A stretch of DNA of 64,000 nucleotides from positions 1 through 64,000 of IMG/VR virus record IMGVR_UViG_3300025902_000014. The stretch is one strand, 5' to 3'. This document shows, piece after piece, positions 43,641-63,593 of the stretch. Under the pieces are notes generated by a model. That model saw only the letters and a program-made list of their open reading frames with translations, was not told where the DNA came from and did no database searches. Each line of letters opens with the position of its first letter. The first letter of the stretch is position 1. Source of the stretch: a virus (taxonomy: Duplodnaviria > Caudoviricetes). A program made the position numbers and the translations under genes.

Positions 43641-44015
43641 ATGAAGCATTTCGCAGATCAGTTGTTCGAGTCTCTGGACGAGGGGGTGGACCCCAAGTTC
43701 AAGTCCGATCTGGAAAACCTCAAGAGGTACTTGGTCGGGATGGTCGGACAGTTCCACGTTTCGGACTTCGCGGGAGAGTTCAAGCGTATGGGAGACGACG
43801 CTCATGCGTGCCTCGTCATGGCCGAGAAGCTCGAAAAGCATCCCGGGCGACTGCTTCCCGGCGACATCGTGGGGGGCGTGCAGGAGAAGGTCCACGTGGC
43901 GGCGGCGACGTACGTCAAGCTCGGGGCCGAGATTCGCGAAGTGGACGCGCTCCTTCAGAAGATGAAGGCCAACCTCGCGAAGGCGGTCAACCGGCAGGAG
44001 ACCACGGAGTCATGA
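43641..44015 (+). CDS. leader-bearing small protein (MKHFADQLFESLDE)
   Basis: variant of shared N-terminal leader. Confidence 0.7.
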   Translation: MKHFADQLFESLDEGVDPKFKSDLENLKRYLVGMVGQFHVSDFAGEFKRMGDDAHACLVMAEKLEKHPGRLLPGDIVGGVQEKVHVAAATYVKLGAEIREVDALLQKMKANLAKAVNRQETTES

Positions 44016-44722
44016 AGTTCACCGAGGCTGAGCAGTTCCGCATCCAGTGCATCGTGGAGTCCCTCTTCGTCGAGGGGGTCTTCGACCCGGCGATCTTCAA
44101 GGCGTTCTTCATGGCCGGAGGTCCGGGGTCTGGGAAGTCCTTCGTTTCCCGGGCGGTCACGGGCGGCCATGGCCTCGTGACCGTCAACTCCGACACGGCG
44201 TTCGAGATCCTCCTCAAGAAGGCTGGGATGTCCCTGAAGCTCGACACCCTTGACCCGGCGGAGTACGGGGCCGTCCGGGCGCACGCAGGGGATCTGACGA
44301 AGGTGCGGCAGCATCACTGGGTCAACGAGCGGCTGGGAATGGTCATCGACGGAACGGGGCGGGAAGCCTCGAAGATCGAGCATCAGAAGCACGCTCTCGA
44401 ACAGCTCGGGTACGACACGTACATGATCTTTGTGAACACCTCGCTGGAGGTGGCCCTCTCCCGGAACGCGCAGCGGGATCGCACTGTCCCGGAGCACGTC
44501 GTCCGGGAAGCGTGGCAGCACGTGCAGGACAACATCCCGGCTTTCCGGTCCATGTTCGGTGGGCACTTCTACGTAGTCGAGAACAACGGTCCCAATCAGG
44601 ATCTTCTCGACCTCGCGTCGAAGTGGGTCCGCTCGCTCGTGAACACCCCGCCCCAGAACCCCATCGCCAAGAAGTGGATCGCCGACCGGGGAGGCACCGG
44701 GGCCATCGCCAAGTGGAGCTAG
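44012..44722 (+). CDS. P-loop kinase (zeta-toxin/AAA_33-like) with N-terminal leader
   Basis: IVESLFVE|GVFDPAIFKAFFMAGGPGSGKS, VNSD, VIDGTG, ALSRNAQRDR. Confidence 0.85.
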   Translation: MKFTEAEQFRIQCIVESLFVEGVFDPAIFKAFFMAGGPGSGKSFVSRAVTGGHGLVTVNSDTAFEILLKKAGMSLKLDTLDPAEYGAVRAHAGDLTKVRQHHWVNERLGMVIDGTGREASKIEHQKHALEQLGYDTYMIFVNTSLEVALSRNAQRDRTVPEHVVREAWQHVQDNIPAFRSMFGGHFYVVENNGPNQDLLDLASKWVRSLVNTPPQNPIAKKWIADRGGTGAIAKWS

Positions 44723-44730
44723 GAGGAGAG

Positions 44731-44916
44731 ATGCCGTACGAAGTCCTGACCGTGTACCTCGACCTGTTCACCCGCGAGGGCTGCCTCGAATTCAAGCGGC
44801 TCTGCGAGGTCGAGGGTTGGCGGCTCCTGTGGCAGGAGCAGGTTCTGAGGAACGACGGGAAGACGGACTTCTCGTCCCACCTCGTCCACTTCCACCGTGG
44901 CGGAGAAGTGAAATGA
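44731..44916 (+). CDS. hypothetical protein
   Basis: AGGAGGAG RBS. Confidence 0.55.
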   Translation: MPYEVLTVYLDLFTREGCLEFKRLCEVEGWRLLWQEQVLRNDGKTDFSSHLVHFHRGGEVK

Positions 44917-45158
44917 AGATCACGACGAAGCTCGTCGAGTCCATCGTGGAGTTCGACCTGCCCGCTTTGACCCCCAAGCAGGAGCTGGAGAACCGGGTCC
45001 GGGACATCTTCCACATTCATCGCGGGGAGATGACGGATCAGGACGTCAAGTGGCAGCTCAAGACGAAGGCCATGCGCGACGTTCTCGCGGCGCTGGTCAA
45101 GGACAAGATCGTGCTCAAGCGCGGGGGCAAGTACGTGTGGCCCGACATGCGGCACTGA
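44913..45158 (+). CDS. leader-bearing small protein (MKITTKLVESIVE), winged-helix-like body
   Basis: shared leader; ATGA overlap. Confidence 0.75.
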   Translation: MKITTKLVESIVEFDLPALTPKQELENRVRDIFHIHRGEMTDQDVKWQLKTKAMRDVLAALVKDKIVLKRGGKYVWPDMRH

Positions 45159-45168
45159 CATTTCTAGC

Positions 45169-45196
45169 TTGACAGTTTGAGACTTTCTGATAGAGT
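45169..45196 (+). promoter_or_regulatory. promoter TTGACA-N16-TAGAGT, leaderless ATG 45203
   Basis: ATG 6 nt after -10. Confidence 0.65.
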
Positions 45197-45202
45197 AGAG
45201 CC

Positions 45203-45511
45203 ATGAGAGTGAAGACGAACCTGACCGAGAAGTTCCTCCCCGATCGCGGGGATCTCCACCCCATCGTTCACTCGAACGGGTCGGGCAAGGCGAACCTTCT
45301 CGCGTGGGCTGAGCACTGCGAGAGTGCTCTGGCGGACGCTCTCACGGCCCTGCACTACGCCGGGGCTCCCCACCAGCGTGACTACTACATCGAAGGCCCC
45401 GAGGCATGGAACAAGGCCAAGAAGGGGTTCGAGGACCGGGTCAAGGCTGTCGCCGAGGTCCACGACTTCTACAGGGATCTGATCGACTACCTGCACACGG
45501 TGAAAGGTTGA
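45203..45511 (+). CDS. leader-bearing small protein (MRVKTNLTE)
   Basis: shortened shared leader. Confidence 0.75.
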   Translation: MRVKTNLTEKFLPDRGDLHPIVHSNGSGKANLLAWAEHCESALADALTALHYAGAPHQRDYYIEGPEAWNKAKKGFEDRVKAVAEVHDFYRDLIDYLHTVKG

Positions 45512-45513
45512 CC

Positions 45514-45828
45514 ATGAAAATCAGGACGAACCTGACCGAGGCCCTCGTTGAGGGGCGCGATCTTCCAATCCGATACACCGTCAACCTGACCGCTCCGGGG
45601 ATGCACTACACCCCGATGCAGTGGCGGACTCGGCCGCAGGGACAGATCCCGTCCTACGGTGCGCCGACTAACGCCAACCTCGCAAAGTTCATGGCCAAGT
45701 TCCTCGAAACCATGAAGCCGGGTGGTCACAGCGCTCATCTGGGGGATAAGGGTATTCCTACCCGTGCGACCATCATGGACCACGACACGGGGCAGGTCGT
45801 CGCTTCGTGGATAAATCCGGAGCACTAA
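45514..45828 (+). CDS. leader-bearing small protein (MKIRTNLTEALVE)
   Basis: shared leader. Confidence 0.8.
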   Translation: MKIRTNLTEALVEGRDLPIRYTVNLTAPGMHYTPMQWRTRPQGQIPSYGAPTNANLAKFMAKFLETMKPGGHSAHLGDKGIPTRATIMDHDTGQVVASWINPEH

Positions 45829-45829
45829 G

Positions 45830-46096
45830 ATGAAGGTCAAGACACGTCTCACCGAGGCGCTCACCGAGAGCAACCCGAACGACATGTTCGCCGGGCTCAG
45901 CAAGCCCTTCAAGGGGCTCAAGGCCGGGGACACGGTGTACTTCAAGCAGTACGCCGGGATGGGCCGGGGTGGCCCCGAGTACAGGACCGCCAAGGGCAAG
46001 GTGCTGAAGTACCTCGTCTTCCCCGACCACGTCATGGTCTCGGGGGGCTGGGCGGGTCAGCTCGTCAACGACGAGAACTTCATCAAGAAGGGCTGA
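45830..46096 (+). CDS. leader-bearing small protein (MKVKTRLTEALTE), SH3-like body
   Basis: shared leader. Confidence 0.8.
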   Translation: MKVKTRLTEALTESNPNDMFAGLSKPFKGLKAGDTVYFKQYAGMGRGGPEYRTAKGKVLKYLVFPDHVMVSGGWAGQLVNDENFIKKG

Positions 46097-46098
46097 AC

Positions 46099-46434
46099 AT
46101 GAAGGTCACCACCCAGCTCGCCGAATCTCTCACCGAGGCCGAGGGAAAAGAGGTCTTCCCGCACACCTTGGTCCAGCCGATCGCCCAGCGTCTGGCATCG
46201 GCCGCGCCCCTCCCCGGCCAGCGGAACACGGCCGTGATGCCGCTCGTGGGGATGCTCAAGCCCGGCGGACAGTGGTACCGGGACATCCCGTGGACCGTGA
46301 TCGAGGGTGTGGCGAAGAAGCTGGCCATGAAGGAGTACGCCGGGCCGGGGCAGAGCGTGTCCCTCGCTTTGGCGCTGGCGCGGATCTCCATGATCTGGCA
46401 GGACGTCTACCACAAGTGGCAGAGCGGGGCGTAG
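46099..46434 (+). CDS. leader-bearing small protein (MKVTTQLAESLTE)
   Basis: shared leader. Confidence 0.8.
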   Translation: MKVTTQLAESLTEAEGKEVFPHTLVQPIAQRLASAAPLPGQRNTAVMPLVGMLKPGGQWYRDIPWTVIEGVAKKLAMKEYAGPGQSVSLALALARISMIWQDVYHKWQSGA

Positions 46435-46444: not shown

Positions 46445-46756
46445 ATGCGCGTCTCGACCCGCCTGACTGAAACCCTCGTCGAGGCCGCCCCGATCGGGGG
46501 GAGCTTCCCGTCCCGGGTGCTCCACGACACGGAGCCCCTCGGGGGCAAGTACGTGCTGTTGGTTCTCTGGGACAAGGGCGACAAGGGAGCCTACGTCTTC
46601 GGCGGGCCGGACATGATGGCCCACGCCGGGGGCAACGCACGCGCCGGGAACGCCCGGTCGATCGCCTACACGAAGAAGCTCCCGAAGCAGACCGTCGGGG
46701 AGTTCAAGGCCAAGCTCGCCGGATCGAAGTACGCCGGAGCGGAGGTTCACGCATGA
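46445..46756 (+). CDS. leader-bearing small protein (MRVSTRLTETLVE)
   Basis: shared leader; AGGAGG RBS. Confidence 0.8.
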   Translation: MRVSTRLTETLVEAAPIGGSFPSRVLHDTEPLGGKYVLLVLWDKGDKGAYVFGGPDMMAHAGGNARAGNARSIAYTKKLPKQTVGEFKAKLAGSKYAGAEVHA

Positions 46757-46983
46757 AGGTCACGACGAACCTGACCGAGGCCCTGACTGAAGCTCCCCGG
46801 AAGTGGAAGCGGGGGCAGTCCGAGGTCTTCAAGGACAAGGGCATCGTGGTCCAGTGGCTCCCCGCGAATCAGGCATGGTTCGTCGGGTTCGGCCGCGACC
46901 CCCAGACCGCCAGCCGCCTCCGGGTCATCAGCGACCCGGTCGAGCTGGACGACTACCTCCGGGTGGACCTGAAGCTCTACTGA
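46753..46983 (+). CDS. leader-bearing small protein (MKVTTNLTEALTE)
   Basis: shared leader; GGAGG RBS. Confidence 0.8.
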   Translation: MKVTTNLTEALTEAPRKWKRGQSEVFKDKGIVVQWLPANQAWFVGFGRDPQTASRLRVISDPVELDDYLRVDLKLY

Positions 46984-47033: not shown

Positions 47034-47055
47034 TCCCTTGGTTGGAGGTACCGAT

Positions 47056-47472
47056 ATGACGAACCCCAATGTTCTGGTGGCCACCCTGCTGGAGTCCGAA
47101 AAGCTCCTCGCGGCTCTCACGACTTCGGCCGAGGCAGTCGGCCTGAAGCTCTCCCCGAAGCTCGTCCCGAGGACCGACCTCGACGACGAGCACATCTCGG
47201 TGGACGAGAACACCCTCGTGGACATCTACCCCGCCGGAGTCGAGGTCCGAACGCTCTCCGGAAGCATCCACGTTCCGGGCTACGTGGTCACGACGACCAA
47301 CGTCATCCCGGCCTCCCGGTGGGTGCCCGAAGACGCCGACATCACGGACGAGATCGTCACCCGGAGCATCTCCGAGGCTGTCCACGTCGCCCTCGGATGC
47401 GTGCTCAACAGGCGACTCGAAGAGTTCATCATGGCGAGTTCGGAGGCAGGACTCGCTGAGGAGGGTGAATGA
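47056..47472 (+). CDS. acidic hypothetical protein
   Basis: GGAGG RBS. Confidence 0.7.
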   Translation: MTNPNVLVATLLESEKLLAALTTSAEAVGLKLSPKLVPRTDLDDEHISVDENTLVDIYPAGVEVRTLSGSIHVPGYVVTTTNVIPASRWVPEDADITDEIVTRSISEAVHVALGCVLNRRLEEFIMASSEAGLAEEGE

Positions 47473-47548
47473 GGTACTGCTAGTCACCTCGCAGCACACA
47501 CCCCAAGGATACGCAGGCCCCCCGTGAGGGGGGCTTGTCGTTTTATGC

Positions 47549-47620
47549 TTGACAGGATAAGCCTACTTCTGGTATCTTCTGGGTGTGGGCGAGACGCCCC
47601 GAAGAAAGCGAGAAACGAAA
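47549..47620 (+). promoter_or_regulatory. promoter TTGACA-N18-TATCTT plus conserved 5' leader hairpin
   Basis: GTGGGC-GAGAC-GCCCCGAAGAAAG, repeated at 48056 and 56178. Confidence 0.75.
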
Positions 47621-47974: not shown

Positions 47975-48019
47975 CCCCGGGCCTCCTCCGAGAAACTCTT
48001 CAAGCCCCCGCGAGGGGGC

Positions 48020-48089
48020 TTGACTGTTTTAGCTTGTTCGTGCTAGATTACGGGTGTGGGCGAGAGAGCCCCGAAGAAAGCGAGACGCC
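48020..48089 (+). promoter_or_regulatory. promoter TTGACT-N18-TAGATT plus conserved 5' leader hairpin
   Basis: overlaps hairpin CAAGCCCCC-GCGA-GGGGGCTTG (48001-48022). Confidence 0.75.
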
Positions 48090-49257: not shown

Positions 49258-49761
49258 ATGAAGCTGGCGAAGAAGAAGGCTCCGGTCAAGAAGAAGGTTC
49301 TGGTCAAGAAGGCCCCGGTCAAGAAGCCGAGCAAGGGGGTCTCGTTCACGGACTTCCCGACCCTCGGGGACATCATCACGCGGCTGGAAGTTCAAGCGAT
49401 CAAGCTGCACGAGGCCGAGAAGAAACTCCGGCTCACCGAGGCGGCCCACCTCGCGTCTGTGGAACGGGAGAACGTCCTGACCCGGGATCTCGATACGGCC
49501 CGGGAGAAGGTGGCCGTCCTCGGGCGGGAAGTCCTCGACCTCAAGGCGTCCAAGACCCTGTTTCAGGCCCGGGTGAAGGAGCTGGAGAAGATCCGGAAGG
49601 TGACCGCCAAGGTTCCCGGGGTCAAGGCCCGGCTGGACATCCTCCTCGACGGGGACTTCCACCGGTACTTCCGGAACGTGGAGGCCGGGGGCAACAGCCT
49701 CCCCGACCTCACGATCATCCTGAGAGAGCTTCAGAGCATCCGGGACGGCATCGCCGACTAG
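49258..49761 (+). CDS. coiled-coil protein with Lys-rich N-terminus (KKAPVKK repeats)
   Basis: GAGGAGG RBS. Confidence 0.7.
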   Translation: MKLAKKKAPVKKKVLVKKAPVKKPSKGVSFTDFPTLGDIITRLEVQAIKLHEAEKKLRLTEAAHLASVERENVLTRDLDTAREKVAVLGREVLDLKASKTLFQARVKELEKIRKVTAKVPGVKARLDILLDGDFHRYFRNVEAGGNSLPDLTIILRELQSIRDGIAD

Positions 49762-49812: not shown

Positions 49813-49881
49813 CGCGTTCATCCTCCTGAAAAACCAGCAGTTTTAGGCATGGCACTTCAAGAGGTTTCTCTATCGGGGTGC

Positions 49882-50520
49882 ATGAGTGCCCCGCACCTCA
49901 TCTACGGCTTGGCAGATCCCGAAACCGGAAAGCTCCGGTATGTCGGGCAGACCCACCGTACGCTGGATGCCCGGCTCTACCACCACATCTGGGATGCCAT
50001 TCACCACTCTCACAAGAACCGCAAGGACGCTTGGATCTGCAACCTGACGGTGCGGGGCCTGCGTCCGAACATCGTACTTCTGGAGGAGACATCCTCATGG
50101 AAGACCCGTGAGAAGCACTGGATCGCCCAGTTCCCGGATCTCCTGAACTGCACCGAAGGCGGAGAGGGGATCGTCGGGTACAGGCACACCCCGGAAGCCC
50201 GGCAGAAGATCGCTGCGGCGAATCGGCTCAAGGCTGGGAAGAAGCGCACCGGGGAAGCTCTGGCCAACATCACTCGGGGCAACCTGAGTCGGCGGGGTCG
50301 GCCTCAGTCGGCGGAGACCATCGCGAAGAAGGTGGCGGCTCTTCGTGGGAAAAAGGCATCTCCTGAGCTGTGTGCGAAGCGGAAAGCCATGTGGGCTACT
50401 CCGGAACGCCGGGAGCAGGGCCGCCTGAACGCGCAGAAACGTTGGGATAGGGAAGAGGCCGAGTGGCGGGCTTCCTATCCAGAGTCATTCACCAGTCTGA
50501 GCACAACTCAGACAAACTAG
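49882..50520 (+). CDS. GIY-YIG homing endonuclease with NUMOD3 repeats
   Basis: IYGLADP...RYVGQT...R...H, LLNxTEGGEG, HTPEARQKIA. Confidence 0.9.
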   Translation: MSAPHLIYGLADPETGKLRYVGQTHRTLDARLYHHIWDAIHHSHKNRKDAWICNLTVRGLRPNIVLLEETSSWKTREKHWIAQFPDLLNCTEGGEGIVGYRHTPEARQKIAAANRLKAGKKRTGEALANITRGNLSRRGRPQSAETIAKKVAALRGKKASPELCAKRKAMWATPERREQGRLNAQKRWDREEAEWRASYPESFTSLSTTQTN

Positions 50521-50816: not shown

Positions 50817-51293
50817 ATGCTGAACCGGGTGACCCAAGTCTTCTCCCCGTTCGGGTCGGGGGGCTTTCTCAGGCAGATGGCCGAGGCTGCGCTTCGGAAC
50901 GTCAAGGAGTTTGAACTCAAGGTCGGCTCCTCTGAGAAGAGCCCCTACGACTTCCCGGTGGAGAAGCTCGGGGATCTCATGCTGGTCAGCATCGACGAGG
51001 AAGGTACGGTCCTCCGGGCACGGACCGTCAAGAACTCTCCCGGGAAGGATTACCAGTGGGCGGGTCCATGCACCCCCAAGGCGAATCTGTTCCGTGTCCT
51101 GAAGTTCGTCGGGGATGACCCTCTCGACCGTCAGAAGTTTCTTGACTACGTCTACAACTTCCGGAACGTCCTGATCGACCTCAAGAAGGAAACCATCGTC
51201 GTCATCGACGAGAACACGGCGGAAGCGTTGACGGTCACCAGCGGGGTTCAGGCTCCTCGGGTGGCCGCCATCATGACCGCACTGGGACAGTGA
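50817..51293 (+). CDS. hypothetical head-module protein
   Basis: coupled to protease gene. Confidence 0.7.
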   Translation: MLNRVTQVFSPFGSGGFLRQMAEAALRNVKEFELKVGSSEKSPYDFPVEKLGDLMLVSIDEEGTVLRARTVKNSPGKDYQWAGPCTPKANLFRVLKFVGDDPLDRQKFLDYVYNFRNVLIDLKKETIVVIDENTAEALTVTSGVQAPRVAAIMTALGQ

Positions 51294-53236
51294 TGAGACT
51301 TCTCGAAGCATCTTACTTTGAGGGTTACGAGATCCTCGAAGGCTCGGGCGAGGGGGCCAAGCCCCTGATCGTGCGGGGTGTGTTCGGGCGGGCGAATGTC
51401 AAGAACGAGAACGGACGGATCTACCCGGACAGCGTCTGGAGGAAGGTTCTCTCTGAGAGTTCCGAGGCCATGGGACGAATCAAGTCCCGGAACTTCTTCA
51501 GCGAACTCGACCACCCGGACGATGGCCGGACTCTTCTTCAGCGTGTGGCCGGACTGACCACGCGACTGGAGATGCGTCCCGACTGGGCCGTGTACGGTGA
51601 GGCGGAGATCCTCCCGACCCCGGCGGGGAAGATCCTCGAAGCCCTTTTCCGCTCGAAGGCCAAGATCGGCATCTCTTCGCGTGGGGAAGGGGATCTCCTG
51701 AAGACCGAGTCTGGTGACATCGTTCAGGAGAACTTTGAACTTCAGGCATTCGACTTCGTCCACAACCCCTCGACTCAGGGGGCCTATCCCAACCCCGTCT
51801 TCGAGCATCTTCTGGCCCGAAGGACAGGAGATCGAATGATGGATCTGATGGAAGAGTTCAAGGCACTGGAGAGGTCCGTCCTCGAACTCGTGAACCTGAA
51901 GCCCTCGGAGGTGTCCGCCGCCATGCGGCCCCTCGTCGAGCGTCAGGCGACCGAGACGATGGTCAAGCTCTCCAAGCTGTCCGAGTCGGCGGGGGACATG
52001 AAGCCCCTGTTCATCGGACTTCTCTCCGAACTGAACACCGCTCGTCGTCCTTTCGTCCGTCTGGGCGAGAACGACGGCGGCAACTACCACCCGGGGCTCG
52101 TGGACAAGCTCCTCGCGGCGACCAACACGGCCAAGGCCGGTGAGGCCGGAAGCGTCGAGGCCCTCCCCGCGACGGTGGAACCCGACTCTCTCCCCCTCAT
52201 CCCCGGCGCGGACCCGAAGGCCGTGGGTGAGTCCAAGACCGAAAAGACCCGCAAGGAGGAAGCCAAGATGGCCGAGGCCGCGAAGAAGAATTCCATGAGC
52301 AAGGCCCTCCGGTCGGCGATCCGTGAAGCCGAGGACGAGCTGGATCAGATCGCCACCGACGAGAGCGAGGACGAGACCGCCCTCGCGGCACAGGAGGCGG
52401 CGCAGAAGTGCGAGTCCCGGCTCCTCAAGGCCGCCCGGAAGGTCATGGAGGGGGACGGCGCGAACCTCATGCCCGACTCCTACGAGCCCGCCGAGCCCAA
52501 GGGCGAGGAAGAGATCGGCGAGTCCGAGGACGGTGACGAGGACGACGTCCCGACCCTCACGGCGTCCGACGACGACGAGAACCAGTTCGGCGAGGACGAG
52601 AACGGCCCGCCGCCCGAGATTCAGGCCAAGATCGACGCCAAGGAGTCCAAGCGCAGGCGGCCCTCCGCCCTCCGCCGGTTCTCCGAGAGCGACGACGACA
52701 GCATCGACATCCCGGCCCCTCCCAAGGAGGAGGCCGAGACCGAGCCCACGGACGACGACGGTCAGCCCCTCCCCCCGATGGAGGCGAAGATCGTCAAGAC
52801 CTACCGCAAGCTCGTCCGCGAGAACCGCCGGATGCGCTACGAGGCGAGGGTCACCGAGGCCATCGCGGCCAAGGCCATCGCCAAGCTCACCCGCAGGGTC
52901 CGCGCCACCGAGGCGGCCCGCCCGTCCGCCCCGGCCTTCATCGTGGCCGGTGGCCAGAAGATCCCGGTCAAGGTGGCCGGGTCGGTCATCGAGTCCCTCG
53001 TCCGCCGCTACAAGGAGCTGAAGAAGACCTCCGGCGGCAAGGTCACGGAGTCCGCCGGTTCGCCCGACCCGGGCAGCATCTCCGAGGGTCCGTTCGGCGT
53101 TCCGTCGTTCGCCAAGGTGGGCAACGTCGCCCGCCTGAACGAGGCCGCCACGGCCGGACGCAAGACCGAGAAGTCGATCCTCGAAAGTCAGGCTGAGCTG
53201 GGTGCCCGCGTGGCCGCCCGGATCGGTCGGGTCTAA
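51290..53236 (+). CDS. T4 gp21-like prohead protease fused to acidic scaffold/core domain
   Basis: NENGRIYP, ELDHP, ILPTPAGKIL, GISSRGEG, FDFVHNPSTQGA; acidic coiled-coil C-terminus; directly upstream of MCP. Confidence 0.92.
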   Translation: MMRLLEASYFEGYEILEGSGEGAKPLIVRGVFGRANVKNENGRIYPDSVWRKVLSESSEAMGRIKSRNFFSELDHPDDGRTLLQRVAGLTTRLEMRPDWAVYGEAEILPTPAGKILEALFRSKAKIGISSRGEGDLLKTESGDIVQENFELQAFDFVHNPSTQGAYPNPVFEHLLARRTGDRMMDLMEEFKALERSVLELVNLKPSEVSAAMRPLVERQATETMVKLSKLSESAGDMKPLFIGLLSELNTARRPFVRLGENDGGNYHPGLVDKLLAATNTAKAGEAGSVEALPATVEPDSLPLIPGADPKAVGESKTEKTRKEEAKMAEAAKKNSMSKALRSAIREAEDELDQIATDESEDETALAAQEAAQKCESRLLKAARKVMEGDGANLMPDSYEPAEPKGEEEIGESEDGDEDDVPTLTASDDDENQFGEDENGPPPEIQAKIDAKESKRRRPSALRRFSESDDDSIDIPAPPKEEAETEPTDDDGQPLPPMEAKIVKTYRKLVRENRRMRYEARVTEAIAAKAIAKLTRRVRATEAARPSAPAFIVAGGQKIPVKVAGSVIESLVRRYKELKKTSGGKVTESAGSPDPGSISEGPFGVPSFAKVGNVARLNEAATAGRKTEKSILESQAELGARVAARIGRV

Positions 53237-53268: not shown

Positions 53269-54693
53269 ATGGAACTCAACGAAGCAACGTTCAAGATGGG
53301 AACCTCGGAGCGGGTCAACAACGCTCTGGCCGCGTCCAAGTGGCGCAGGTTCCTCGAAGCCGCCAAGGTGCCCGAGGCCAAGCGGCCCTTCATCGCCCGG
53401 CTCTGCGAGAACCAGCTCACGTGGATGAGCCAGCTCGACGAGGAGACCCGTGTGGCCTCCATCGGGTCGTTCGAGAAGTTCGTCTTCCCGATGATCCGTG
53501 CGGTCTACCCGAACCTCGTCGCGCAGGATCTCGTCTCGGTGCAGCCGATGGAGGCTCCGACCTCCCTCGTGTTCTACCGCGACACCCGGTTCGGCTCCAA
53601 CAAGGGCGCGGTGAAGGCGGGTGATCCGCTCTTCAGTGCGCGCACCGGCTGGAACAACGCCTCCGGGTTCAACTACACCTCCGAGGTCGTCGAGAACGAA
53701 GAGATCGAGATGTCCACGGGCACGGGCGTGTCCTTCACGGGCAACCTCGCCTACCACCCCCTCCGTCCGGGCGGGCTGGTGATCTCCTACCTCAAGACCG
53801 CCGGGACCGCTGCGACCCTCACCGACGACGGCGCGGGCGGCCTCATCGGCGCGGCCGGTGAGCTGGCCGGGACGAACACGATCGACTACGGCACGGGTGC
53901 CTACGTCATCACCTTCGACACCGGGAAAGACCCGGCGGCCGGGGCCTTCACGGCCACGTACGACTACAACTCCGAGGGCTACGGGGACATCCCGCAGATC
54001 GACCTCATCCTCACGAGCACGCCCGTCGTGGCTCGCCCGAGGAAGCTCCGCGCTCGGTGGAGCATCGAGGCGGCGGCCCAGCTCAAGGCGGTCCACGGTG
54101 ACGAGGCCGAGGTCGAGCTGATGACCGACATGGCCAACGAGATGCGGATCGAGGTCGATCGCGAGATCATCTACGACCTCATCACCCTCGCCAACTCCAA
54201 CAACACCTCTGGCACGATCACCGAGACGACGTTCGCCAAGGCCGCGCCTTCGAACATCAGCCTCTACCTGCACCGCCAGAGCTTCATCTACTCGCTCATC
54301 GAAGCCTCGAACAAGATCTTTCAGGCGACCCGTCGCCACGGAGCCACGTGGCTCATCGGCGGCACGAACGTCTGCTCGATCATTCAGGGTCAGGAGGGCG
54401 AGCAGTTCGTCCCGGCCGGTGGCGACTATCAGGGTTCCGGCGTCCAGTTCATCGGCACCCTGAAGGGCCAGTGGAAGGTCTACCTCGACCCGTACATGAA
54501 CGCGGACGAGGCCATCCTCGGCTACAAGGGCGGGTCGTTCCTCGACAGCGGCTACGTCTACGCGCCGTGGGTTCCCTTCTACGCCACCCCGACCATCTAC
54601 CTCGACGACTTCGTCGGCCGCAAGGGGCTCTTCACCAGCTACGCGAAGAAGCCGATCAACGGGCTCTTCTATGCAAAGTTGAGGCTCACCTAA
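53269..54693 (+). CDS. major capsid protein (T4 gp23-like)
   Basis: ENQ, PMIRAVYPNLVAQDLVSVQPM, RKLRARWSIEAAAQLKAVHG, EVDREII, YLDPY, GYKG...YVYAPWVP. Confidence 0.95.
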   Translation: MELNEATFKMGTSERVNNALAASKWRRFLEAAKVPEAKRPFIARLCENQLTWMSQLDEETRVASIGSFEKFVFPMIRAVYPNLVAQDLVSVQPMEAPTSLVFYRDTRFGSNKGAVKAGDPLFSARTGWNNASGFNYTSEVVENEEIEMSTGTGVSFTGNLAYHPLRPGGLVISYLKTAGTAATLTDDGAGGLIGAAGELAGTNTIDYGTGAYVITFDTGKDPAAGAFTATYDYNSEGYGDIPQIDLILTSTPVVARPRKLRARWSIEAAAQLKAVHGDEAEVELMTDMANEMRIEVDREIIYDLITLANSNNTSGTITETTFAKAAPSNISLYLHRQSFIYSLIEASNKIFQATRRHGATWLIGGTNVCSIIQGQEGEQFVPAGGDYQGSGVQFIGTLKGQWKVYLDPYMNADEAILGYKGGSFLDSGYVYAPWVPFYATPTIYLDDFVGRKGLFTSYAKKPINGLFYAKLRLT

Positions 54694-54730
54694 CTAAGTC
54701 TAACCTAGTTGGGGGCCTAAAGTCAAGTGC

Positions 54731-54762
54731 GGGGCCGCCTTCGGGCGGCCCCTCTCTTTTTT
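54731..54762 (+). terminator. intrinsic terminator after MCP
   Basis: GGGGCCGCC-TTCG-GGCGGCCCC then T tract. Confidence 0.9.
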
Positions 54763-54784
54763 ATGTCTGACCGGCCTATTAGAC

Positions 54785-54813
54785 TTGACACCAATCACAG
54801 TCTAATATACATT
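54785..54813 (+). promoter_or_regulatory. promoter TTGACA-N17-TACATT, leaderless ATG 54820
   Basis: ATG 6 nt after -10. Confidence 0.75.
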
Positions 54814-54819
54814 TCCCCC

Positions 54820-56930: not shown

Positions 56931-57257
56931 ATGCGAATCGCCGAACAGATCGTCTCAGCCCTTCTTCAGGAAAACGACCCTGAGAAGCCGGTGATGAAGC
57001 CCAACGCGAAGGAAATCGCTCGGGGGTCGCACGGGTACACGGCTGTGGTTCGCCCGGCTGCCGGGGGTGGTTGGAACGCCGCTGTGGTGGACATCCGCAC
57101 GGGGATTCCGATCTTCAAGGTGCGGCACTGTGCGAGCCAAGCTCAGGTTCAGTCGGAACTAGCTTCCGATCTCCGGATGATGGACAAGACGGGCTTTCCG
57201 GGGATGGCTGGCCCTTCCCGAGACCGTAACTACTTCACGAAGTACGGGAGATCCTGA
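56931..57257 (+). CDS. leader-bearing small protein (MRIAEQIVSALLQE)
   Basis: shared leader; GGAG RBS. Confidence 0.75.
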   Translation: MRIAEQIVSALLQENDPEKPVMKPNAKEIARGSHGYTAVVRPAAGGGWNAAVVDIRTGIPIFKVRHCASQAQVQSELASDLRMMDKTGFPGMAGPSRDRNYFTKYGRS

Positions 57258-57258: not shown

Positions 57259-57627
57259 TTGCGCGTCCGGACCCGGCTCACCGAAGCTCTCTTGGGGGAG
57301 ATGGCCATGGACGGGTCGGAGTACCCGGCCGTGGTCAAGGTCTTCGTGCAGGGTATCCACACCGGGGACGTGAACAACCCCAGCAAACTCGTCGCGCAGG
57401 TGCCTCCCGGGAGTCTCGGGAAGAGGATCAAGTACGACGCTCTCTCGAACGAACTCACCCGGCAGATCCTGAAGGACACGGGGCTTGTCCGGAAGTTCGA
57501 GATTCCCGAGTCCTTCCGGGATGCGGTGGAAAGGGTGCAAGAGATCTTCCGGGATGCGGTCATCAAGTTCATGACCTACATGGAGAGGACCGGTGGTAGC
57601 GAAGCCAGCTACGGCCGGTACATGTAG
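57259..57627 (+). CDS. leader-bearing small protein (TTG start; MRVRTRLTEALLGE)
   Basis: shared leader; GGGAG RBS. Confidence 0.75.
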   Translation: MRVRTRLTEALLGEMAMDGSEYPAVVKVFVQGIHTGDVNNPSKLVAQVPPGSLGKRIKYDALSNELTRQILKDTGLVRKFEIPESFRDAVERVQEIFRDAVIKFMTYMERTGGSEASYGRYM

Positions 57628-58164: not shown

Positions 58165-58917
58165 ATGTCCGAGGTCACCACCTATCCTGAGCGTCATACT
58201 GAGAAGTTCGACGAGGAGGAATACTACGACTGGGTGCTCCGCCAGCTCGGACATCCGGACGTCGAGGTGGAGCTGTCCAAGGACAACGTCAAGGACGCCA
58301 TGAAGGAGGCGCTGGCCTTCTACTCCAAGTACAAGCCCCAGCGGGTCACGGAAGCCTTCATCGTGGCTCAGGGGGTCACCCCGTACAAGCTGAAGTACCC
58401 CGGGGTGCGGGGGGTCTACCACATCGAGATGATGGGGGTCACGGACGGGCTCTCCAGCCCGAACATCGAGTCCCAACTCATGTCCGGGTCGTACACCTAC
58501 TACGGGGTCGCGGCCCCCAAGATGGACCTCCGGTACTACGAGTACCTCCGCCAGTGGGTGAAGGTGGCCTCACGGGAACTGTCGTCCGAGCAGGACTACC
58601 ACCTCTCCGACGACGGGACGACGATCTGGATCTACTCCCCGGGGCGGGAAACGAAAGTCACGGCGACCCTGACCCTCGACCACGTGAGTCCCGCGACGAT
58701 CCCGAGCCACGACCAGATCTGGCTCCGGAAGTATGTGCTTGCCCAGTGCAAGCTGGTCCTCGGGGAGAAGAGATCCAAGTTCAACTCGATCCTCGGGGCG
58801 AACAAGGAAATCACTCTGAACGGGAAGGAACTCAAGGAAGAGGGTAAGGCCGAGATCGAGAAGCTGGAAGAGAAGATCGAGAAGGCGCGGACTCACTTGA
58901 GTCCGTCTTGGGGTTGA
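58165..58917 (+). CDS. neck/head-completion protein (T4 gp13-like)
   Basis: VLRQLGHPDVEVEL, WLRKYVLAQCKxxLGxxRSKF, ITLNG...EGKAEIEKLEE. Confidence 0.85.
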   Translation: MSEVTTYPERHTEKFDEEEYYDWVLRQLGHPDVEVELSKDNVKDAMKEALAFYSKYKPQRVTEAFIVAQGVTPYKLKYPGVRGVYHIEMMGVTDGLSSPNIESQLMSGSYTYYGVAAPKMDLRYYEYLRQWVKVASRELSSEQDYHLSDDGTTIWIYSPGRETKVTATLTLDHVSPATIPSHDQIWLRKYVLAQCKLVLGEKRSKFNSILGANKEITLNGKELKEEGKAEIEKLEEKIEKARTHLSPSWG

Positions 58918-58922: not shown

Positions 58923-59171
58923 ATGAAGATCCGAAGCATGTTGGTAGGTTCCCTGCTGGAAGACATCCACGCCCTGCGCCCCTGCTCACAGGCGGAGTGG
59001 GACGTGTTTCTCGCGCACCTCCCCTCCGGAGCGGCACGAAGGGACGTTCCCTCTGGCCTCTCGTTCGTGAGGCAGATCCTTCTTCACGGGAAGGTCATCG
59101 GGCAGAAGACGACGCAGTTCAAGGGTGGTCGTCCGGTGGCCACATCGTACATGAAAGACCCCTCGTACTGA
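58923..59171 (+). CDS. leader-bearing small protein (MKIRSMLVGSLLE)
   Basis: variant leader. Confidence 0.65.
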   Translation: MKIRSMLVGSLLEDIHALRPCSQAEWDVFLAHLPSGAARRDVPSGLSFVRQILLHGKVIGQKTTQFKGGRPVATSYMKDPSY

Positions 59172-59179: not shown

Positions 59180-59629
59180 ATGGCGTACTGGGTTCTGAGA
59201 TCAACGTCAACTTCCCAGATCGAGGAGGACGTGGACTCGATCGTGGAAGATCTCCTCGTCCCGGACATGCAGACCCTCGAAGCTCTCGAAGAGGGAATGC
59301 TTCAGCATGGCTGGGTGAAGTTCAAGGCCATCGTGAAGAAGCTGCTGCCGGACGTCTTCAGCAAGATCAGCAACGCCAAGCACCAGCGGTTCCTCGTCCA
59401 GATGGGGGAGCGGCCGGGAAGTCCCACCGTCGAGGTGGACCACTCTCTCGACGCAGCCCCTCGTGCGCCGGTTCAGCCCGGGGACAAGATCCAGATCCGT
59501 GGCCTGCTCGAACCTCACGGCGGCGACGGGAACAAGCCCGTGGTCCACTTCACCCACAAGTCCCGGGATGGATCTGAGGCTGGCTTCATCTGGAAGGGTG
59601 AGACCCCTCCGGTGTGGACGGTGAAGTGA
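59180..59629 (+). CDS. DUF3465-like OB-fold protein with acidic leader
   Basis: KLLPD...HQRF...H-x-LDAAPR-x-P...GD...VHFTH...GFI. Confidence 0.7.
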   Translation: MAYWVLRSTSTSQIEEDVDSIVEDLLVPDMQTLEALEEGMLQHGWVKFKAIVKKLLPDVFSKISNAKHQRFLVQMGERPGSPTVEVDHSLDAAPRAPVQPGDKIQIRGLLEPHGGDGNKPVVHFTHKSRDGSEAGFIWKGETPPVWTVK

Positions 59630-60477
59630 GCACGAAAACCTTCCTCGTTCTCCGGTTGGGCCACAACGTCGCGGCCTCGCTGGACAACAAGAACGCGGCG
59701 AACATCGGGGGGATGGCCTCGTTCATCCTCTCGGCGCTGGACAAGGACATCGCTTTCGGAGACAAGCTCTCCCTGTACGAGGTCACGGCCGAGCTGCCGT
59801 TCGCAGGCTACATCCAGTACCGGGGGTCGTCCGTCCAGAACCGTTACCTCGATGGGGATGTCCGTGCCGAGCACGTGGGAGAGATGACGATCCACACAAA
59901 CGCGAAGTGGTACTCGTTCCCGGCGGGTGGGAAGTGGAAGGCCCACCTGAAGCGGACGGTGGACAACGCCATCCACGTGCTGGACGCCATGGTCCCGGAG
60001 AGGTTCCCCCGGGAGAAGCGCATCGCCATGTGCGGCGAAGTCCAGATTCAGCAGCTCTTGAAGCACGTTTTCCACGAGATGCACGAGGAGAAGAATATGA
60101 AGACCACCACGAAGATCGTTGAGGCTCTGCTCGGAGAGGGATTCGGGGGCTCGGGCAAGACCGTCAAGCTCTCTCCCGGTGATCGGTCGCAGATCAACAG
60201 GGGTATCTACTCGGCGACGTTGAACAAGTATTTCAACAGTCTTGCGGCGGCCATCGAGGTAATCAACCATGCCATGAAGCCGGTGGGTTACTTCATCATG
60301 GCATCGTCCGACTACATGGGCAGGGATGACGGGCACAAGAACCTCCCGATCCACAAGGAGCACCCGGAGGGTACGGACCCGTTCATGGGCCACGATGAGG
60401 TCTCGAACTGCTGGCTCTCGTTCTCATGGCACAAGATGGGGTCCGGGAAGTACGAGATCACGGCGTACGTGAGCTGA
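59626..60477 (+). CDS. two-part protein; internal in-frame start at 60097 (MKTTTKIVEALLGE leader)
   Basis: GAGGAG-N6-ATG at 60097 followed by shared leader. Confidence 0.7.
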   Translation: MSTKTFLVLRLGHNVAASLDNKNAANIGGMASFILSALDKDIAFGDKLSLYEVTAELPFAGYIQYRGSSVQNRYLDGDVRAEHVGEMTIHTNAKWYSFPAGGKWKAHLKRTVDNAIHVLDAMVPERFPREKRIAMCGEVQIQQLLKHVFHEMHEEKNMKTTTKIVEALLGEGFGGSGKTVKLSPGDRSQINRGIYSATLNKYFNSLAAAIEVINHAMKPVGYFIMASSDYMGRDDGHKNLPIHKEHPEGTDPFMGHDEVSNCWLSFSWHKMGSGKYEITAYVS

Positions 60478-61150
60478 GTCCCTGAACATGCTTCCATGTG
60501 ACGCCGCGCACGATCCAGCTTATGGTCATCTGTCCCACACCATAGGTGCGGGCCAGTTCGGCTTGGCTGATTGTGCCTTCCGCGTAACGAAGACGGATTT
60601 CCCGAACTTGAGCTTCAGTAAGTTTGGCGTGCTTGCAGACCTCGCCCCTGATGTAACGGGAGGTCTCTGGGGGGCCTTGAAGGGTGTGCTTCCACGCATG
60701 ACCTTGAAGGATGTGTCCGATCATGCCGTCGGTTACTCCAAATTTCAGGGCCAGTGCTCGTTTCGTCCACGCGCCAGTACGGTACAGCTCCTCCATTTCA
60801 AGCACTTGTTCCTTCACGAGTTTTCGGGCCAGCCGCCCATGCTTGGCTGCATGGCGCACGTTGTCTCCGATAGAGAGGTATTCCAAGTTCACAGCCCGGT
60901 TGTCCATTCGGTCGAAATTCTTGTGATTGACCGGAAGGTCAGACGGCCCCAGAAACGCTTCAGCAACCAGACGGTGAGCCAAGCGAGTCGTCCGCCAGCC
61001 AAGGTGCGACAGCGCGACGTACAGGTACCCGTCTGGTCGTCGGTGCGGGTTGAGCGGTCTGCCATTGCTGTGGCAGAACCGACCCAACGAGGACACGATG
61101 TAGTAGGTGAAGTTCGGAACCGTTTTCCAGACTTCAGGGGGTGTGGGCAT
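60458..61150 (-). CDS. NUMOD4-HNH homing endonuclease with two C-terminal HTH domains
   Basis: EVWKTV...YIVSSLGR, AHRLVAEAFL, VNHKNxDRMDNRAVNLEY, KLTEAQVREIR...SQAELARTYGV. Confidence 0.9.
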   Translation of the reverse strand: MPTPPEVWKTVPNFTYYIVSSLGRFCHSNGRPLNPHRRPDGYLYVALSHLGWRTTRLAHRLVAEAFLGPSDLPVNHKNFDRMDNRAVNLEYLSIGDNVRHAAKHGRLARKLVKEQVLEMEELYRTGAWTKRALALKFGVTDGMIGHILQGHAWKHTLQGPPETSRYIRGEVCKHAKLTEAQVREIRLRYAEGTISQAELARTYGVGQMTISWIVRGVTWKHVQGLSSRTP

Positions 61151-61676: not shown

Positions 61677-61685
61677 GATGGGGCC

Positions 61686-62285
61686 GTGGCTGTCCGGGTG
61701 AAAACGCAGATCAAGAAGCCCGCCAAGCGGGCTTCCTACGTCCTCGTGAACACGTTCGGGGACAACCGCAAGCCCGGGTCTCTTCTCCTCGCCATCCAAG
61801 GCACCTGCCGGAAGATCGCACAGGAGATGGCTCAGGAGATGCGGGATGCTTTTTACCGGCAACGGTTCAAGATGGCCCCGTTGACCGCCCAGTACCTCGC
61901 CATGAAGAAGCGTAAGGGTCTCGATAAAAGAACCCTCATCGCCTACAAGAAGTACGTCAAGGCTATCGGGTTCATAAAGACTCCCTACGGCGGCATGATC
62001 GGGATAACTCGGGCCTTCCGGATCGACCAGCGGGGGAAGAAGACCCGGAAGCTCTCGTACCATCTTCTCCAGCGGTGGCTCGAATACGGCACCCGGAAGA
62101 AACGCGGGATGACGAAAACCGGGAAGCAGAAGTACGGAAAGATGGGGTCTAGGATGCCCGCCCGTCCGATATGGCGGCCAATGATGCGGTACTGGAAGGC
62201 CCACCGTAGGGACTATGGGCTCCGGCTCAAGAACGTCATCGGGTTCGAGTTGCGGCAGAAACTTCGAGCGTTCGCAGTACGCTGA
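61686..62285 (+). CDS. basic tail-completion/neck protein (HK97 gp10-like motif)
   Basis: WLEYGT...MPARPIWRP. Confidence 0.7.
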   Translation: MAVRVKTQIKKPAKRASYVLVNTFGDNRKPGSLLLAIQGTCRKIAQEMAQEMRDAFYRQRFKMAPLTAQYLAMKKRKGLDKRTLIAYKKYVKAIGFIKTPYGGMIGITRAFRIDQRGKKTRKLSYHLLQRWLEYGTRKKRGMTKTGKQKYGKMGSRMPARPIWRPMMRYWKAHRRDYGLRLKNVIGFELRQKLRAFAVR

Positions 62286-62307
62286 ACTATCTGAACGAGA
62301 GGACATC

Positions 62308-62679
62308 ATGGATCAGAAACCGGAAGCCATCGTCGAGTCCCTTCTCGGAGAAGGCTCCCTCACTGAGGGGGACGTCCACGGTCTCATGTCGTCCATCGAC
62401 GGCTTCGAGCGGGTCATGTCCGGGTCGGACTTCCAGCACATCTACGCGGCCCTTCAGGTCGTCAAGCCGGACGTCTGGGGGCATCTTCCGGGTGAGGTTG
62501 TGGGGAACCTGAAGTCCAAGCTCGACACGGCCCGGGTGGGGCTCGTCAACTTCGTCACGGCGGCCAAGGCAGCGGTGGGGAAGGCGAACTCCTACAAGCC
62601 CCCGACGGAGTACAGCGGGTACGACTCGGCCGCTCATTCCGGGGAGCACAACCCGACCGTCCACGGGCTCGGGGTCTGA
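62308..62679 (+). CDS. leader-bearing small protein (EAIVESLLGEGSLTE)
   Basis: variant leader; GAGG RBS. Confidence 0.7.
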   Translation: MDQKPEAIVESLLGEGSLTEGDVHGLMSSIDGFERVMSGSDFQHIYAALQVVKPDVWGHLPGEVVGNLKSKLDTARVGLVNFVTAAKAAVGKANSYKPPTEYSGYDSAAHSGEHNPTVHGLGV

Positions 62680-62680
62680 C

Positions 62681-62980
62681 ATGGCCGAAGGCCGGGGTCC
62701 GCGACGGAACAACCTCGTCGAGGCCATCGCGGATCTTCTGATCTTCCGGGCTCTTCTGCCCCTCCACGAGGGGGCATGGGATGCTCCGTACATGACGGTC
62801 CTGAAGTCTCTGGAACGGGAAGTAGAACGGTTCATCGCTCTCGTTCCGAAGGTGGAGAAACTCAATCCCGGGCTGGCGAAGACGCTCTGGCATGAACTGG
62901 GGGCGAAGAGCATGGAGATCCATCAGCTCTACGCCGAGCTGGATCAACGGGTCAAGGAAGCAGAAAGGCATCAAGCATGA
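62681..62980 (+). CDS. small helical protein, possible variant leader (NLVEAIADLL...LHE)
   Basis: within leader-gene cluster. Confidence 0.6.
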   Translation: MAEGRGPRRNNLVEAIADLLIFRALLPLHEGAWDAPYMTVLKSLEREVERFIALVPKVEKLNPGLAKTLWHELGAKSMEIHQLYAELDQRVKEAERHQA

Positions 62981-63327
62981 GGATCGCCGAACAGCTCGCC
63001 CAGAGCCTGACCGAGCAGACCGTCACCGAGATGGACGACTCCGCCCTCCTCGTGGTGGACCGCATCCTGTCCGACATCGACCGGTACATCGCGGCCCACC
63101 TCGAACACGAGTTGGGGATGCTGAAGGACGGGTTGAAGAGCGCGGAGAAGCAGATCGCCGGGCTCAAGAATGCGGGGGCCGGGAAGACGGAGCACGACTC
63201 CATCCTCCTCAAGGTTGTCATGCCCGCGTGGCACCGCTTCGAGTCGCAGGTCACGGACATGGGCACCCGGTTCAAGAAGCTCGAAGCTGCCGCCAAGGCG
63301 GGAGGAAGGGAATGGGACGCACCGTGA
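62977..63327 (+). CDS. leader-bearing small protein (MRIAEQLAQSLTE)
   Basis: shared leader. Confidence 0.8.
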   Translation: MRIAEQLAQSLTEQTVTEMDDSALLVVDRILSDIDRYIAAHLEHELGMLKDGLKSAEKQIAGLKNAGAGKTEHDSILLKVVMPAWHRFESQVTDMGTRFKKLEAAAKAGGREWDAP

Positions 63328-63593
63328 GAATCGCCGAACAGCTCGCTGAGGCCCTGACCGAAGCCGTCGCACCTCTGAAAGACCGGAGCGAAGAGGCCGC
63401 CCACGAAGCCAACACCGTCATCCACTCTCTTCGGGACGCCATCGGCCAGATCGAGCACGAGATCAAGTGGCTGGAACATGACATCGAGGAGCGCACCATT
63501 CACGGGGCGCAGATCCTTCCCGGTCTCAAGACCGCCCGGACTCAGCTTGGGGTGGCTTTGACCACACTTCGGACCACGGCCCACAAGGTGTAA
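63324..63593 (+). CDS. leader-bearing small protein (MRIAEQLAEALTE)
   Basis: shared leader; GTGA overlap. Confidence 0.8.
   Translation: MRIAEQLAEALTEAVAPLKDRSEEAAHEANTVIHSLRDAIGQIEHEIKWLEHDIEERTIHGAQILPGLKTARTQLGVALTTLRTTAHKV

Follow-up and report, generated by a model that had tools for sequence, protein, structure and literature searches.

A short N-terminal leader is shared by small, mutually unrelated proteins of a phage, and these leaders probably constitute a greatly expanded T4-type capsid-targeting propeptide system, in which polyprotein forms also occur. The virus record is 96 kb long and 67% complete, and about 27 copies of the leader lie at 43.6-73.0 kb in it, 6 or 7 of them inside longer ORFs. 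The window analyzed here comprises the first 64,000 nucleotides of this record, and the system outruns it. The phage is known from metagenomes only. All features given below with both start and end coordinates lie on the + strand.

Extent of the Shared Leader

The first-pass annotation of this DNA quoted N-termini for 17 proteins, and 17/17 start sites turned out to be ORFs bearing those N-termini. Its figure of about 17 tagged proteins was right in that all of them are real, but it was too low, since the family extends outside the window to 73.0 kb. The leader that it placed at 60097 is present there, and its Met is internal to a 287-aa ORF (59614..60477).

The chance occurrence of the leader core was estimated from a heuristic gene set and 1000 residue shuffles. 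The core motif is matched 13 times in the gene set, against 0.46 ± 0.67 times (maximum 4) in the shuffles, and the core regex finds 21 matches on the + strand and 1 on the − strand. It had been considered that the motif might be equally common in non-structural genes. This idea fails, since the non-structural part, 1-43.6 kb, encodes 12,827 residues without a single match to the leader core; the motif is restricted to the head-neck-tail module. As had also been suggested, the whole record was scanned, using a profile made from the ten class A leaders (see below) and run over all six frames of the 96 kb. The ten leaders score 19-26 bits and a new member at 71946 scores 15 bits, whereas the next best score is 6 bits.

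Leader Classes and Their Conservation at the Peptide Level

Class A leaders (n = 10 in the window) follow the pattern M-[KR]-[VI]-x-T-x-L-T-E-A-L-T-E. On the basis of ORF and profile, they begin the proteins at 44913..45158 (81 aa), 45203..45511 (102 aa, one L-T-E site), 45514..45828 (104 aa), 45830..46096 (88 aa), 46099..46434 (111 aa), 46445..46756 (103 aa), 46753..46983 (76 aa), 57259..57627 (122 aa, with a TTG start one base past the preceding stop), and 58923..59171 (82 aa, final site L-L-E); the remaining member is the internal copy at 60097. Class B leaders (n = 4 in the window) follow M-R-I-A-E-Q-L-A-x-x-L-T-E and were assigned by ORF and leader at 56931..57257 (108 aa), 62977..63327 (116 aa), and 63324..63593 (89 aa, with a GTG start overlapping the preceding stop). 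A looser class B leader with L-F-E and L-D-E begins the 124-aa protein at 43641..44015, for which no Pfam or PHROG family match was found.

The loose forms (n = 3) retain only the core I-V-E-S-L-L-x-E. One of them is a 236-aa Zeta-toxin/AAA_33-type P-loop kinase at 44012..44722 (Pfam AAA_33 4e-14 and Zeta_toxin 3e-12, both from residue 30-33), in which the leader-like I-V-E-S-L-F-V-E occupies residues 14-21, N-terminal to the domain; its start overlaps the stop of the preceding gene (ATGA). The 149-aa protein at 59180..59629 has a Pfam DUF3465 match from residue 49 and carries I-V-E-D-L-L within its N-terminal extension, and the 123-aa protein at 62308..62679 has the core I-V-E-S-L-L-G-E at residues 8-15. 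The latter two are conserved core genes of the neck region and may be structural rather than cargo.

The leaders are 9-14 residues long, and positions 3, 7, and 11 of their short amphipathic helix are hydrophobic. At least one (L/I)-x-E is present in every leader (all 17 in the window and those at 71-73 kb), often as two tandem L-x-E sites. The presence of (L/I)-x-E is by itself weak evidence because the motif is short and common, with 1.06 occurrences per 100 residues of the proteome. In leaders with a one-residue insertion (L-L-x-E), the residue ahead of the inserted one is Leu, and the L-x-E register is thus retained. At the DNA level, identical codons are used at shared residues with a frequency of 0.45, against 0.48 expected, and the DNA upstream of the leader genes is unrelated from gene to gene. 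Chance-level codon identity and unconserved upstream DNA together indicate that selection acts on the peptide and not on the DNA.

Cargo Bodies and Polyproteins

That the bodies behind the leaders are mutually unrelated, as first noticed from the sequence alone, is borne out by BLASTP among them (18 proteins or 30 segments), which detected no similarity (best E 0.02-0.04). The sole pairwise similarity, between the 62977 and 63324 proteins, is restricted to the leader (residues 1-22). Cargo segments are 50-116 aa long and have a median pI of 9.1, with 53% above pI 9, against a median of 6.0 and 18% above 9 for the remaining small proteins that the phage encodes; not all cargos are basic, several being acidic or neutral. 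One leader-bearing protein, the kinase at 44012, is an enzyme, and apart from it no cargo matched known anti-defence or enzyme families. The AF2 model of the 57259 protein (pLDDT 82) has a helical-bundle body with a short leader helix set apart, and for this sole confident model no fold match was found.

Leaders inside ORFs form two- to four-unit polyproteins, in which the internal copies are located at module borders and Zn-ribbon modules recur. The 287-aa ORF at 59614..60477 consists of a 160-aa N-domain, the internal class A leader, and a 112-aa cargo. The Met of this leader at 60097 is preceded by GAGGAG, and the JGI gene call has one gene of 283 aa here. In the polyprotein at 69324, residues 77-166 fill exactly the stretch between two leaders and show 57% identity to residues 3-91 of an unrelated bactofilin-repeat protein of 404 aa.

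Retention of the Leader in Related Phages

Relatives retain the leader while the cargo differs, and this includes relatives of 48% GC, against 63% in this phage. Cargos are gained and lost in comparison with the relatives L009 and L018, the leader arrays differ in L003 and L012, and such turnover is seen between phages whose capsid proteins are 87% identical. For example, the 58923 gene is absent from L009, as is the 56931 gene at the corresponding place. A homolog of the 46099 protein (P0127, 69% identity) has a shorter leader with a single L-T-E, and the 62977 ortholog in L018 (56% identity) has the same leader. In one ortholog pair the leader is identical at 10/14 residues, against 41% identity overall. 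Among homologs of the 57259 protein, P0125 has the same leader and P0124 is a fused second unit; this cargo, which is free here, occurs in L018 behind another unit within a two-unit protein, where the junction still ends in L-R-E. The L018 ortholog of the 59614..60477 ORF keeps the internal leader at 15/15 residues, with 90% identity in the N-domain and 65% in the cargo. Orthologs of the 59180 gene are present in L009 and L018, and those of the 62308 gene in L003, L009, and L018 retain the motif.

Protease, Capsid Protein, and Head Context

A prohead protease of the gp21 family is encoded at 51290..53236 (Pfam Peptidase_S77 PF03420, 5.5e-13), fused to a long scaffold-like tail rich in Glu, Lys, and Ala. 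Its D-H-P and S-S-R-G motifs align with N-H-P and S-S-R-G of T4 gp21, and the aligned His and Ser are presumably the catalytic residues of this protease family. Judging from its sequence, it is presumed to be the enzyme that cuts after the leaders. The protease bears L-L-E-A at its own N-terminus, and [LI]-x-E reaches 2.0 per 100 residues in its tail, about twice the proteome frequency given above. A diverged second protease paralog is also encoded.

The major capsid protein (53269..54693) is of the T4 gp23 type: tblastn aligns it with annotated major capsid proteins at 28-37% identity, and its homologs have Pfam Gp23. [LI]-N-E-A at its residues 3-6 is conserved in four relatives, and where T4 gp23 is cut, the aligned residues are S-F-E, not L-x-E. 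Upstream, two conserved small genes stand where T4 has genes 67 and 68, and no homology of them to gp68 was detected. A gp13-type neck protein (head-tail adaptor; 58165..58917; PHROG 211, 1.8e-18; orthologs with Pfam Phage_T4_gp13) marks the context, and many leader genes sit among neck and tail genes besides head genes.

Possible Mechanism and Alternative Explanations

The leader had been proposed at first reading to be a capsid-targeting tag ending in a gp21 site, and every prediction of this proposal that can be tested at the sequence level held. It is supported by the S77 protease with its aligned His and Ser, the preserved (L/I)-x-E register, the lack of the motif in the non-structural part, the unrelated payloads, and the retention of the leader in relatives. 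We infer core binding, cleavage, packaging, and injection of the cargo as follows. The leader helix would bind the scaffolding core, that is, the tail of the protease-scaffold fusion, during prohead assembly, and anything fused to the helix would thereby enter the prohead. The gp21-family protease would cut behind the Glu in each of the terminal (L/I)-x-E sites, of which a leader has one or two, and the small, usually basic protein freed in the head would exit with the DNA at infection. Leader-cargo units act as cassettes that are gained, lost, and replaced among related phages, and units joined in frame would become polyproteins separable by the same protease. More tentatively, the whole may be a cassette system, in which a load-and-cut tag on each module permits shuffling and co-delivery of about 27 injected effectors including the Zeta-type kinase. 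In such a system units could be fused or split without functional loss because the prohead protease would resolve them in the head. About 27 different cargo species are many for one head, which counts against the best reading, as do the S-F-E of the capsid protein at the aligned cut site, the sigma-70-like promoter ahead of the main array (see below), and the possibly structural role of the 59180 and 62308 proteins.

Another reading keeps the leader as a cleaved tag for the prohead core but takes the cargo for bulk basic internal or core protein, such as DNA charge neutralisers or core/scaffold helpers like T4 gp67/gp68, and not for specific injected effectors; this is unlikely. The mostly basic cargo segments, the lack of anti-defence or enzyme family matches except for the kinase, and the 57259 model without fold match would fit this idea, but the diversity of bodies and their turnover between phages with 87% identical capsid proteins would be left unexplained, and the cargos include an enzyme and several acidic or neutral proteins. 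That the leader instead serves for recognition by another partner, for instance a modifying enzyme (RiPP-like), a chaperone, or a site of neck or tail assembly, seems quite unlikely, too. The position of many of the genes among neck and tail genes speaks for such a partner. Against it, no match to radical-SAM PF04055 was found in the 67%-complete record, whereas 14/14 control genomes matched; moreover, the leader ends in the motif expected for the protease, in a register retained through insertions, and the internal copies lie at module borders, as cleavable linkers would.

That these proteins are fast-evolving paralogs of a single family, recognizable only by their N-termini, is very improbable. 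In L012, a stretch of about 28 N-terminal residues, longer than the leader, is common to three tandem genes, and the recurrence of Zn-ribbon modules in polyproteins points the same way; however, no body similarity exists among the 30 segments, lengths, charge, and predicted folds differ, Zeta/AAA_33, DUF3465, and Zn ribbons are distinct bodies, and the start of the unrelated bactofilin-repeat protein has a homolog among the modules. Finally, it is hardly credible that the shared start only results from events in the DNA (recombination anchors, mobile cassettes) or from optimization of translation starts, with a functionless peptide. The leader genes are indeed tightly packed cassettes with terminator-promoter cassettes near them, but the comparisons of codons, upstream DNA, and relatives of different GC content largely refute this explanation, and in-frame leaders occur inside ORFs, distant from any start.

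Comparison with Known Systems

The idea of a shared capsid-targeting sequence on diverse proteins is already known. T4 gp21 cuts after L/I-x-E (PMC9026906), the internal proteins of T-even phages have been described as diverse and sharing only the capsid-targeting sequence (PMC3012670, PMC9026906), and the cargo genes are polymorphic between related T-even phages (PMC9026906; PMC3012670, citing Repoila et al. 1994). In the T4 record, ipII and ipIII start with M-K-T-Y-Q-E-F-I-A-E followed by A, and the ipI leader ends in I-T-E, again followed by A. The internal proteins of T4 are basic. As here, T4 IPI, IPII, IPIII, and Alt, from which gp21 removes the targeting sequence, have a short N-terminal propeptide (10-20 aa in T4) common to otherwise unrelated, mostly small basic proteins. 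Both systems share the leader layout (M-K, hydrophobic positions, (I/L)-x-E, and then Ala), a gp21-family protease with a gp23-type capsid protein, and cargo genes that vary between related phages, and T4 Alt is paralleled by the leader-bearing Zeta/AAA_33 kinase. The likeness between the short leader and the T4 targeting sequence is one of pattern only, with no confident alignment. T4 has four or five tagged proteins, three internal proteins among them, against about 27 leader copies here. Unlike T4, this phage often has two tandem L-x-E sites, leaders inside ORFs and two- to four-unit polyproteins, arrays inside the head-neck-tail module, and a protease fused to the scaffold.

The giant phages phiKZ, 201phi2-1, and SPN3US also cut many head proteins after Glu with a gp21-related protease, their propeptides may hold several sites as the leaders here do, and they likewise have a diverged protease paralog (PMC5694885, PMC9026906). 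In SPN3US, gp53 and gp54 begin with the same 15 residues, which include two x-E sites (PMC5694885, PMC9026906). However, giant-phage propeptides are mostly >100 residues long with the motif S/A-x-E, whereas the tags here have 9-14 residues, and the processed proteins are large and partly paralogous, in contrast to small unrelated modules. Another likeness is to MuF-type or polymorphic toxin domains on minor head proteins, by which the head carries effector domains that vary; the PHROG matches of the 44012 kinase domain include stretches within long 'minor head protein' families. Such effectors sit at the C-terminal end of a single large head protein and are not separate small proteins, each with a cleavable tag of its own.

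To our knowledge, T4 is the only phage with a proven short capsid-targeting tag, and there it serves a handful of proteins. If the capsid-targeting reading is true, the tag principle would be general among distant, uncultured T4-type phages, and it would scale to dozens of cargo modules and protease-resolved polyproteins. Proteins probably injected with the DNA could then be recognized by a simple sequence rule, the leader, and orphan genes so marked would be the first to consider as early anti-defence and host-takeover factors. For loading foreign proteins into phage heads, a second and unrelated pair of tag and protease would become available.

Timing of Expression

A sigma-70-like promoter (45169..45196; TTGACA, 16 nt, TAGAGT, TG-extended; consensus match only) lies directly ahead of the 45203 gene. 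The main array is preceded by such a promoter, and leader genes need not be late genes; the IP genes of T4 are also expressed early. Sigma-70-like promoters, counted as consensus matches only, occur at 3 sites in 8.5 kb, against 0.3 expected.

Leader Classes and Their Distribution

The first-pass annotation had proposed that 17 small proteins share one N-terminal leader, a short peptide ending in (L/I)-x-E, and all 17 of these N-termini were recovered at their positions. Ten of them are class A leaders of the form M-[KR]-[VI]-x-T-x-L-T-E-A-L-T-E, four (one of them loose) are class B leaders of the form M-R-I-A-E-Q-L-A-x-x-L-T-E, and in the remaining three the core [LI]-V-E-S-L-L-x-E is all that is left. 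The classes can be brought into one alignment, in which positions 3, 7 and 11 are hydrophobic and positions 9 and 13 or 14 are acidic. The entry at 60097 needs correction in one respect: the leader is present there, but its Met is internal to ORF 59614-60477. Six-frame scanning of the whole record with a profile of the ten class A leaders scored those ten at 19-26 bits and one new member (71946) at 15 bits, with all else at 6 bits or less. The core regular expression matches the record 21 times on the + strand, which carries nearly all of its genes, and once on the - strand; in the heuristic gene set there are 13 matches against 0.46 ± 0.67 in 1000 shuffles. None of these matches falls among the 12,827 residues whose genes lie at 1-43.6 kb.

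All 17 leaders lie in the window, but the system is larger than had been noticed and continues beyond it, with about 27 copies spanning 43.6-73.0 kb. Past the window, N-terminal leaders occur at 71157, 71946 and 72726, with a loose one at 72379, and in-frame internal leaders are found in ORF 69324-70280 (three), ORF 70280-71152 (two) and ORF 68821-69324 (one, partial). Two leader-like sequences in proteins of the head module were excluded from the count: V-A-T-L-L-E-S-E near the start of the 47038 protein (47038-47472), and R-L-T-E-A-A within the Lys-rich 49258 protein (49258-49761).

Payloads and Polyproteins

The bodies following the leader are of diverse nature. In the class A and B proteins they belong to no Pfam or PHROG family, sub-threshold matches aside. 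Known domains do occur in polyproteins and in proteins with a loose leader, and there they start after the leader. They are a Zeta-toxin/AAA_33 kinase (44012), DUF3465 (59180) and Zn ribbons (71157 and the polyproteins). The cargo segments are mostly basic (median pI 9.1, 53% above 9) compared with other small phage proteins (median pI 6.0, 18% above 9). For the class A protein 57259, an AF2 model built from a four-sequence alignment (pLDDT 82) has a confident helical bundle at residues 17-113, and the leader is predicted with low confidence as a separate short helix at residues 6-12. The model has no fold match at E <0.5 in PDB or BFVD.

The internal copies retain nearly the entire leader except for Met, and the pieces between them are 51-116 aa long, in the size range of single-gene bodies. 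ORF 69324 is identical in the independent JGI, ENA and Logan assemblies, and thus the fusions are not assembly artefacts. An AF2 model of its 318-aa product made without an alignment (pLDDT 51) served only to locate weak linkers; its low-confidence stretches (54-101, 156-187 and 239-260) match the positions of the three leaders. In both ORF 69324-70280 and ORF 70280-71152, small modules, several of which are Zn ribbons, are strung together with leader motifs between them. The nearby DUF7717 protein (71574-71933) has no leader.

Leader Genes in Relatives

A 12-kb megablast query retrieved no close relatives among phage records, a capsid-protein scan of viral contigs gave no confirmed relative, and a degenerate DNA pattern of the class A leader had no match in viral contigs. 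Metagenomic homologs of the capsid protein were found at 87% identity and lower. At the related loci L003/L012 (76% capsid identity, 48% GC), a class A-like leader is found on four tandem genes, and near the neck there are at least three further leader genes. At L009 (87%), orthologs of 59180 and 62308 are kept, and 56931, 57259, 58923 and the ORF of 60097 are absent. The distant relatives L004, L005 and L011 have few leaders or none.

Some relatives record the joining and separation of units. The homologous protein P0125 has the 57259 cargo behind the same leader, with 41% identity overall and 10 of 14 residues identical in the leader. At locus L018, a 192-aa protein has this cargo as its second unit. 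The protein starts with a class A leader of its own, followed by an unrelated unit of 60 aa, and the two units are joined by a degenerate leader still ending in L-R-E. L018 also keeps the 59614 ORF, in which the internal leader is identical at 15 of 15 positions, the N-domain at 90% and the cargo at 65%. In L010, two leader-like motifs lie inside an ORF of 500 aa. A suspected homology between the first unit of P0124, a 57259 homolog with a fused second unit, and the 56931 body was dropped, since BLASTP aligned the leaders only.

A Probable Capsid-Targeting Propeptide

In T4, gp21 cleaves after the Glu of L/I-x-E, the first 10 residues of the internal protein IPIII are enough for packaging, and targeting involves its residues 4 and 7, and cutting its residues 8 and 10; an Asp in position 10 stops cutting but not targeting (PMC9026906, PMC3012670). 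The internal proteins of T-even phages are diverse and have this capsid targeting sequence alone in common (PMC9026906, PMC3012670). In the T4 record, ipII and ipIII start with M-K-T-Y-Q-E-F-I-A-E followed by Ala, and the ipI leader ends in I-T-E, again followed by Ala. The leaders described here have the same layout, and one or more (L/I)-x-E sites are present in every copy. Forms with a one-residue insertion ahead of the last Glu have Leu just before the inserted residue (L-L-x-E), which preserves the L-x-E register. P0127, a homolog of 46099 with 69% identity, has a shorter leader with a single L-T-E, as does 45203, so that a nine-residue form may be enough. From these sequence comparisons, the leader is probably a capsid-targeting propeptide, as the first-pass annotation had suggested.

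Other explanations of the shared leader have been considered. Conservation for DNA-level or translational reasons, as a promoter, a recombination anchor or a start-codon context, is largely excluded: the 60 bases preceding the leader-gene starts are unrelated to each other, residues common to two class A leaders use the same codon in 45% of cases against 48% for independent codon choice, and the leader is kept in the relative with 48% GC. These observations argue that the peptide, and not the DNA, is what has been conserved. Descent of the leader proteins from a single paralog family is not supported either. Their bodies had been described as mutually dissimilar, and indeed BLASTP comparison of 18 proteins, or of 30 segments, gave no significant similarity; likeness between the class B proteins 62977 and 63324 is restricted to residues 1-22. 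The domains differ (kinase, DUF3465, Zn ribbons), and residues 77-166 of the 69324 polyprotein, exactly between two leaders, share 57% identity with residues 3-91 of an unrelated repeat protein of 404 aa.

The leader may instead be a tag for another enzyme, but no radical-SAM gene is present in the record, which is about 67% complete, and the logic of the motif favors the phage's gp21-family protease. If the leader is a capsid-targeting propeptide, the proteins that bear it may still be bulk internal proteins and not specific effectors. The principle of a shared capsid tag is already known from T4. What appears to be new is the scale of about 27 copies, the doubling of the putative cut site, the placing of arrays within the structural module, and the polyproteins, for which fusion and fission are documented.

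Genomic Setting

The record, of which the window is the first 64 kb, is 96,313 bp long, linear by IMG/VR classification, with a GC content of about 63%. It is a fragment, since its last ORF runs off the end and the identical stretch, at the same coordinates, is contained in the 144,067-bp JGI contig Ga0116241_10000253. The leader genes lie within and around a structural module of T4 type, which includes a gp21-family protease (Peptidase_S77 by Pfam) fused to a long scaffold-like tail (51290), a gp23-type capsid protein (53269), a gp13-type neck protein (58165), a gp15-like protein (63628) and a tail sheath (66250). D-H-P and S-S-R-G of the protease align with T4 gp21, and its own N-terminus bears L-L-E-A; a similar site is known at the N-terminus of T4 gp21 (PMC9026906). 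When aligned to T4 gp23, the capsid protein shows S-F-E, not L-x-E, where the T4 protein has its cut site. No gp68 homology was detected for the 50817 gene, and three large ORFs without assignment that were tested with Pfam (22241, 26776 and 38063) gave neither a portal nor a terminase domain.

The prohead protease domain has a 147-aa paralog at 32618-33061 that lacks the His and Ser motifs, having G-M-P in place of D-H-P and R-T-A-G in place of S-S-R-G. SPN3US-like giant phages are also reported to have a diverged protease paralog (PMC5694885). Between the head and neck genes there are two GIY-YIG-type homing endonuclease genes and one of NUMOD4/HNH_3 type (49849-50520, 54727-55482, and 60458-61150 on the - strand), and the same insertion places hold different endonucleases in relatives. 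A sigma-70-like promoter lies upstream of the main leader-gene array. Two strong GC-rich terminator hairpins (47513-47578 and 48000-48049), each directly followed by a sigma-70-like promoter, flank the single small genes 47585 and 48054. These pairs resemble the promoter-stem-loop cassettes that are reported to shuffle genes in T4-type phages (PMC2839356).
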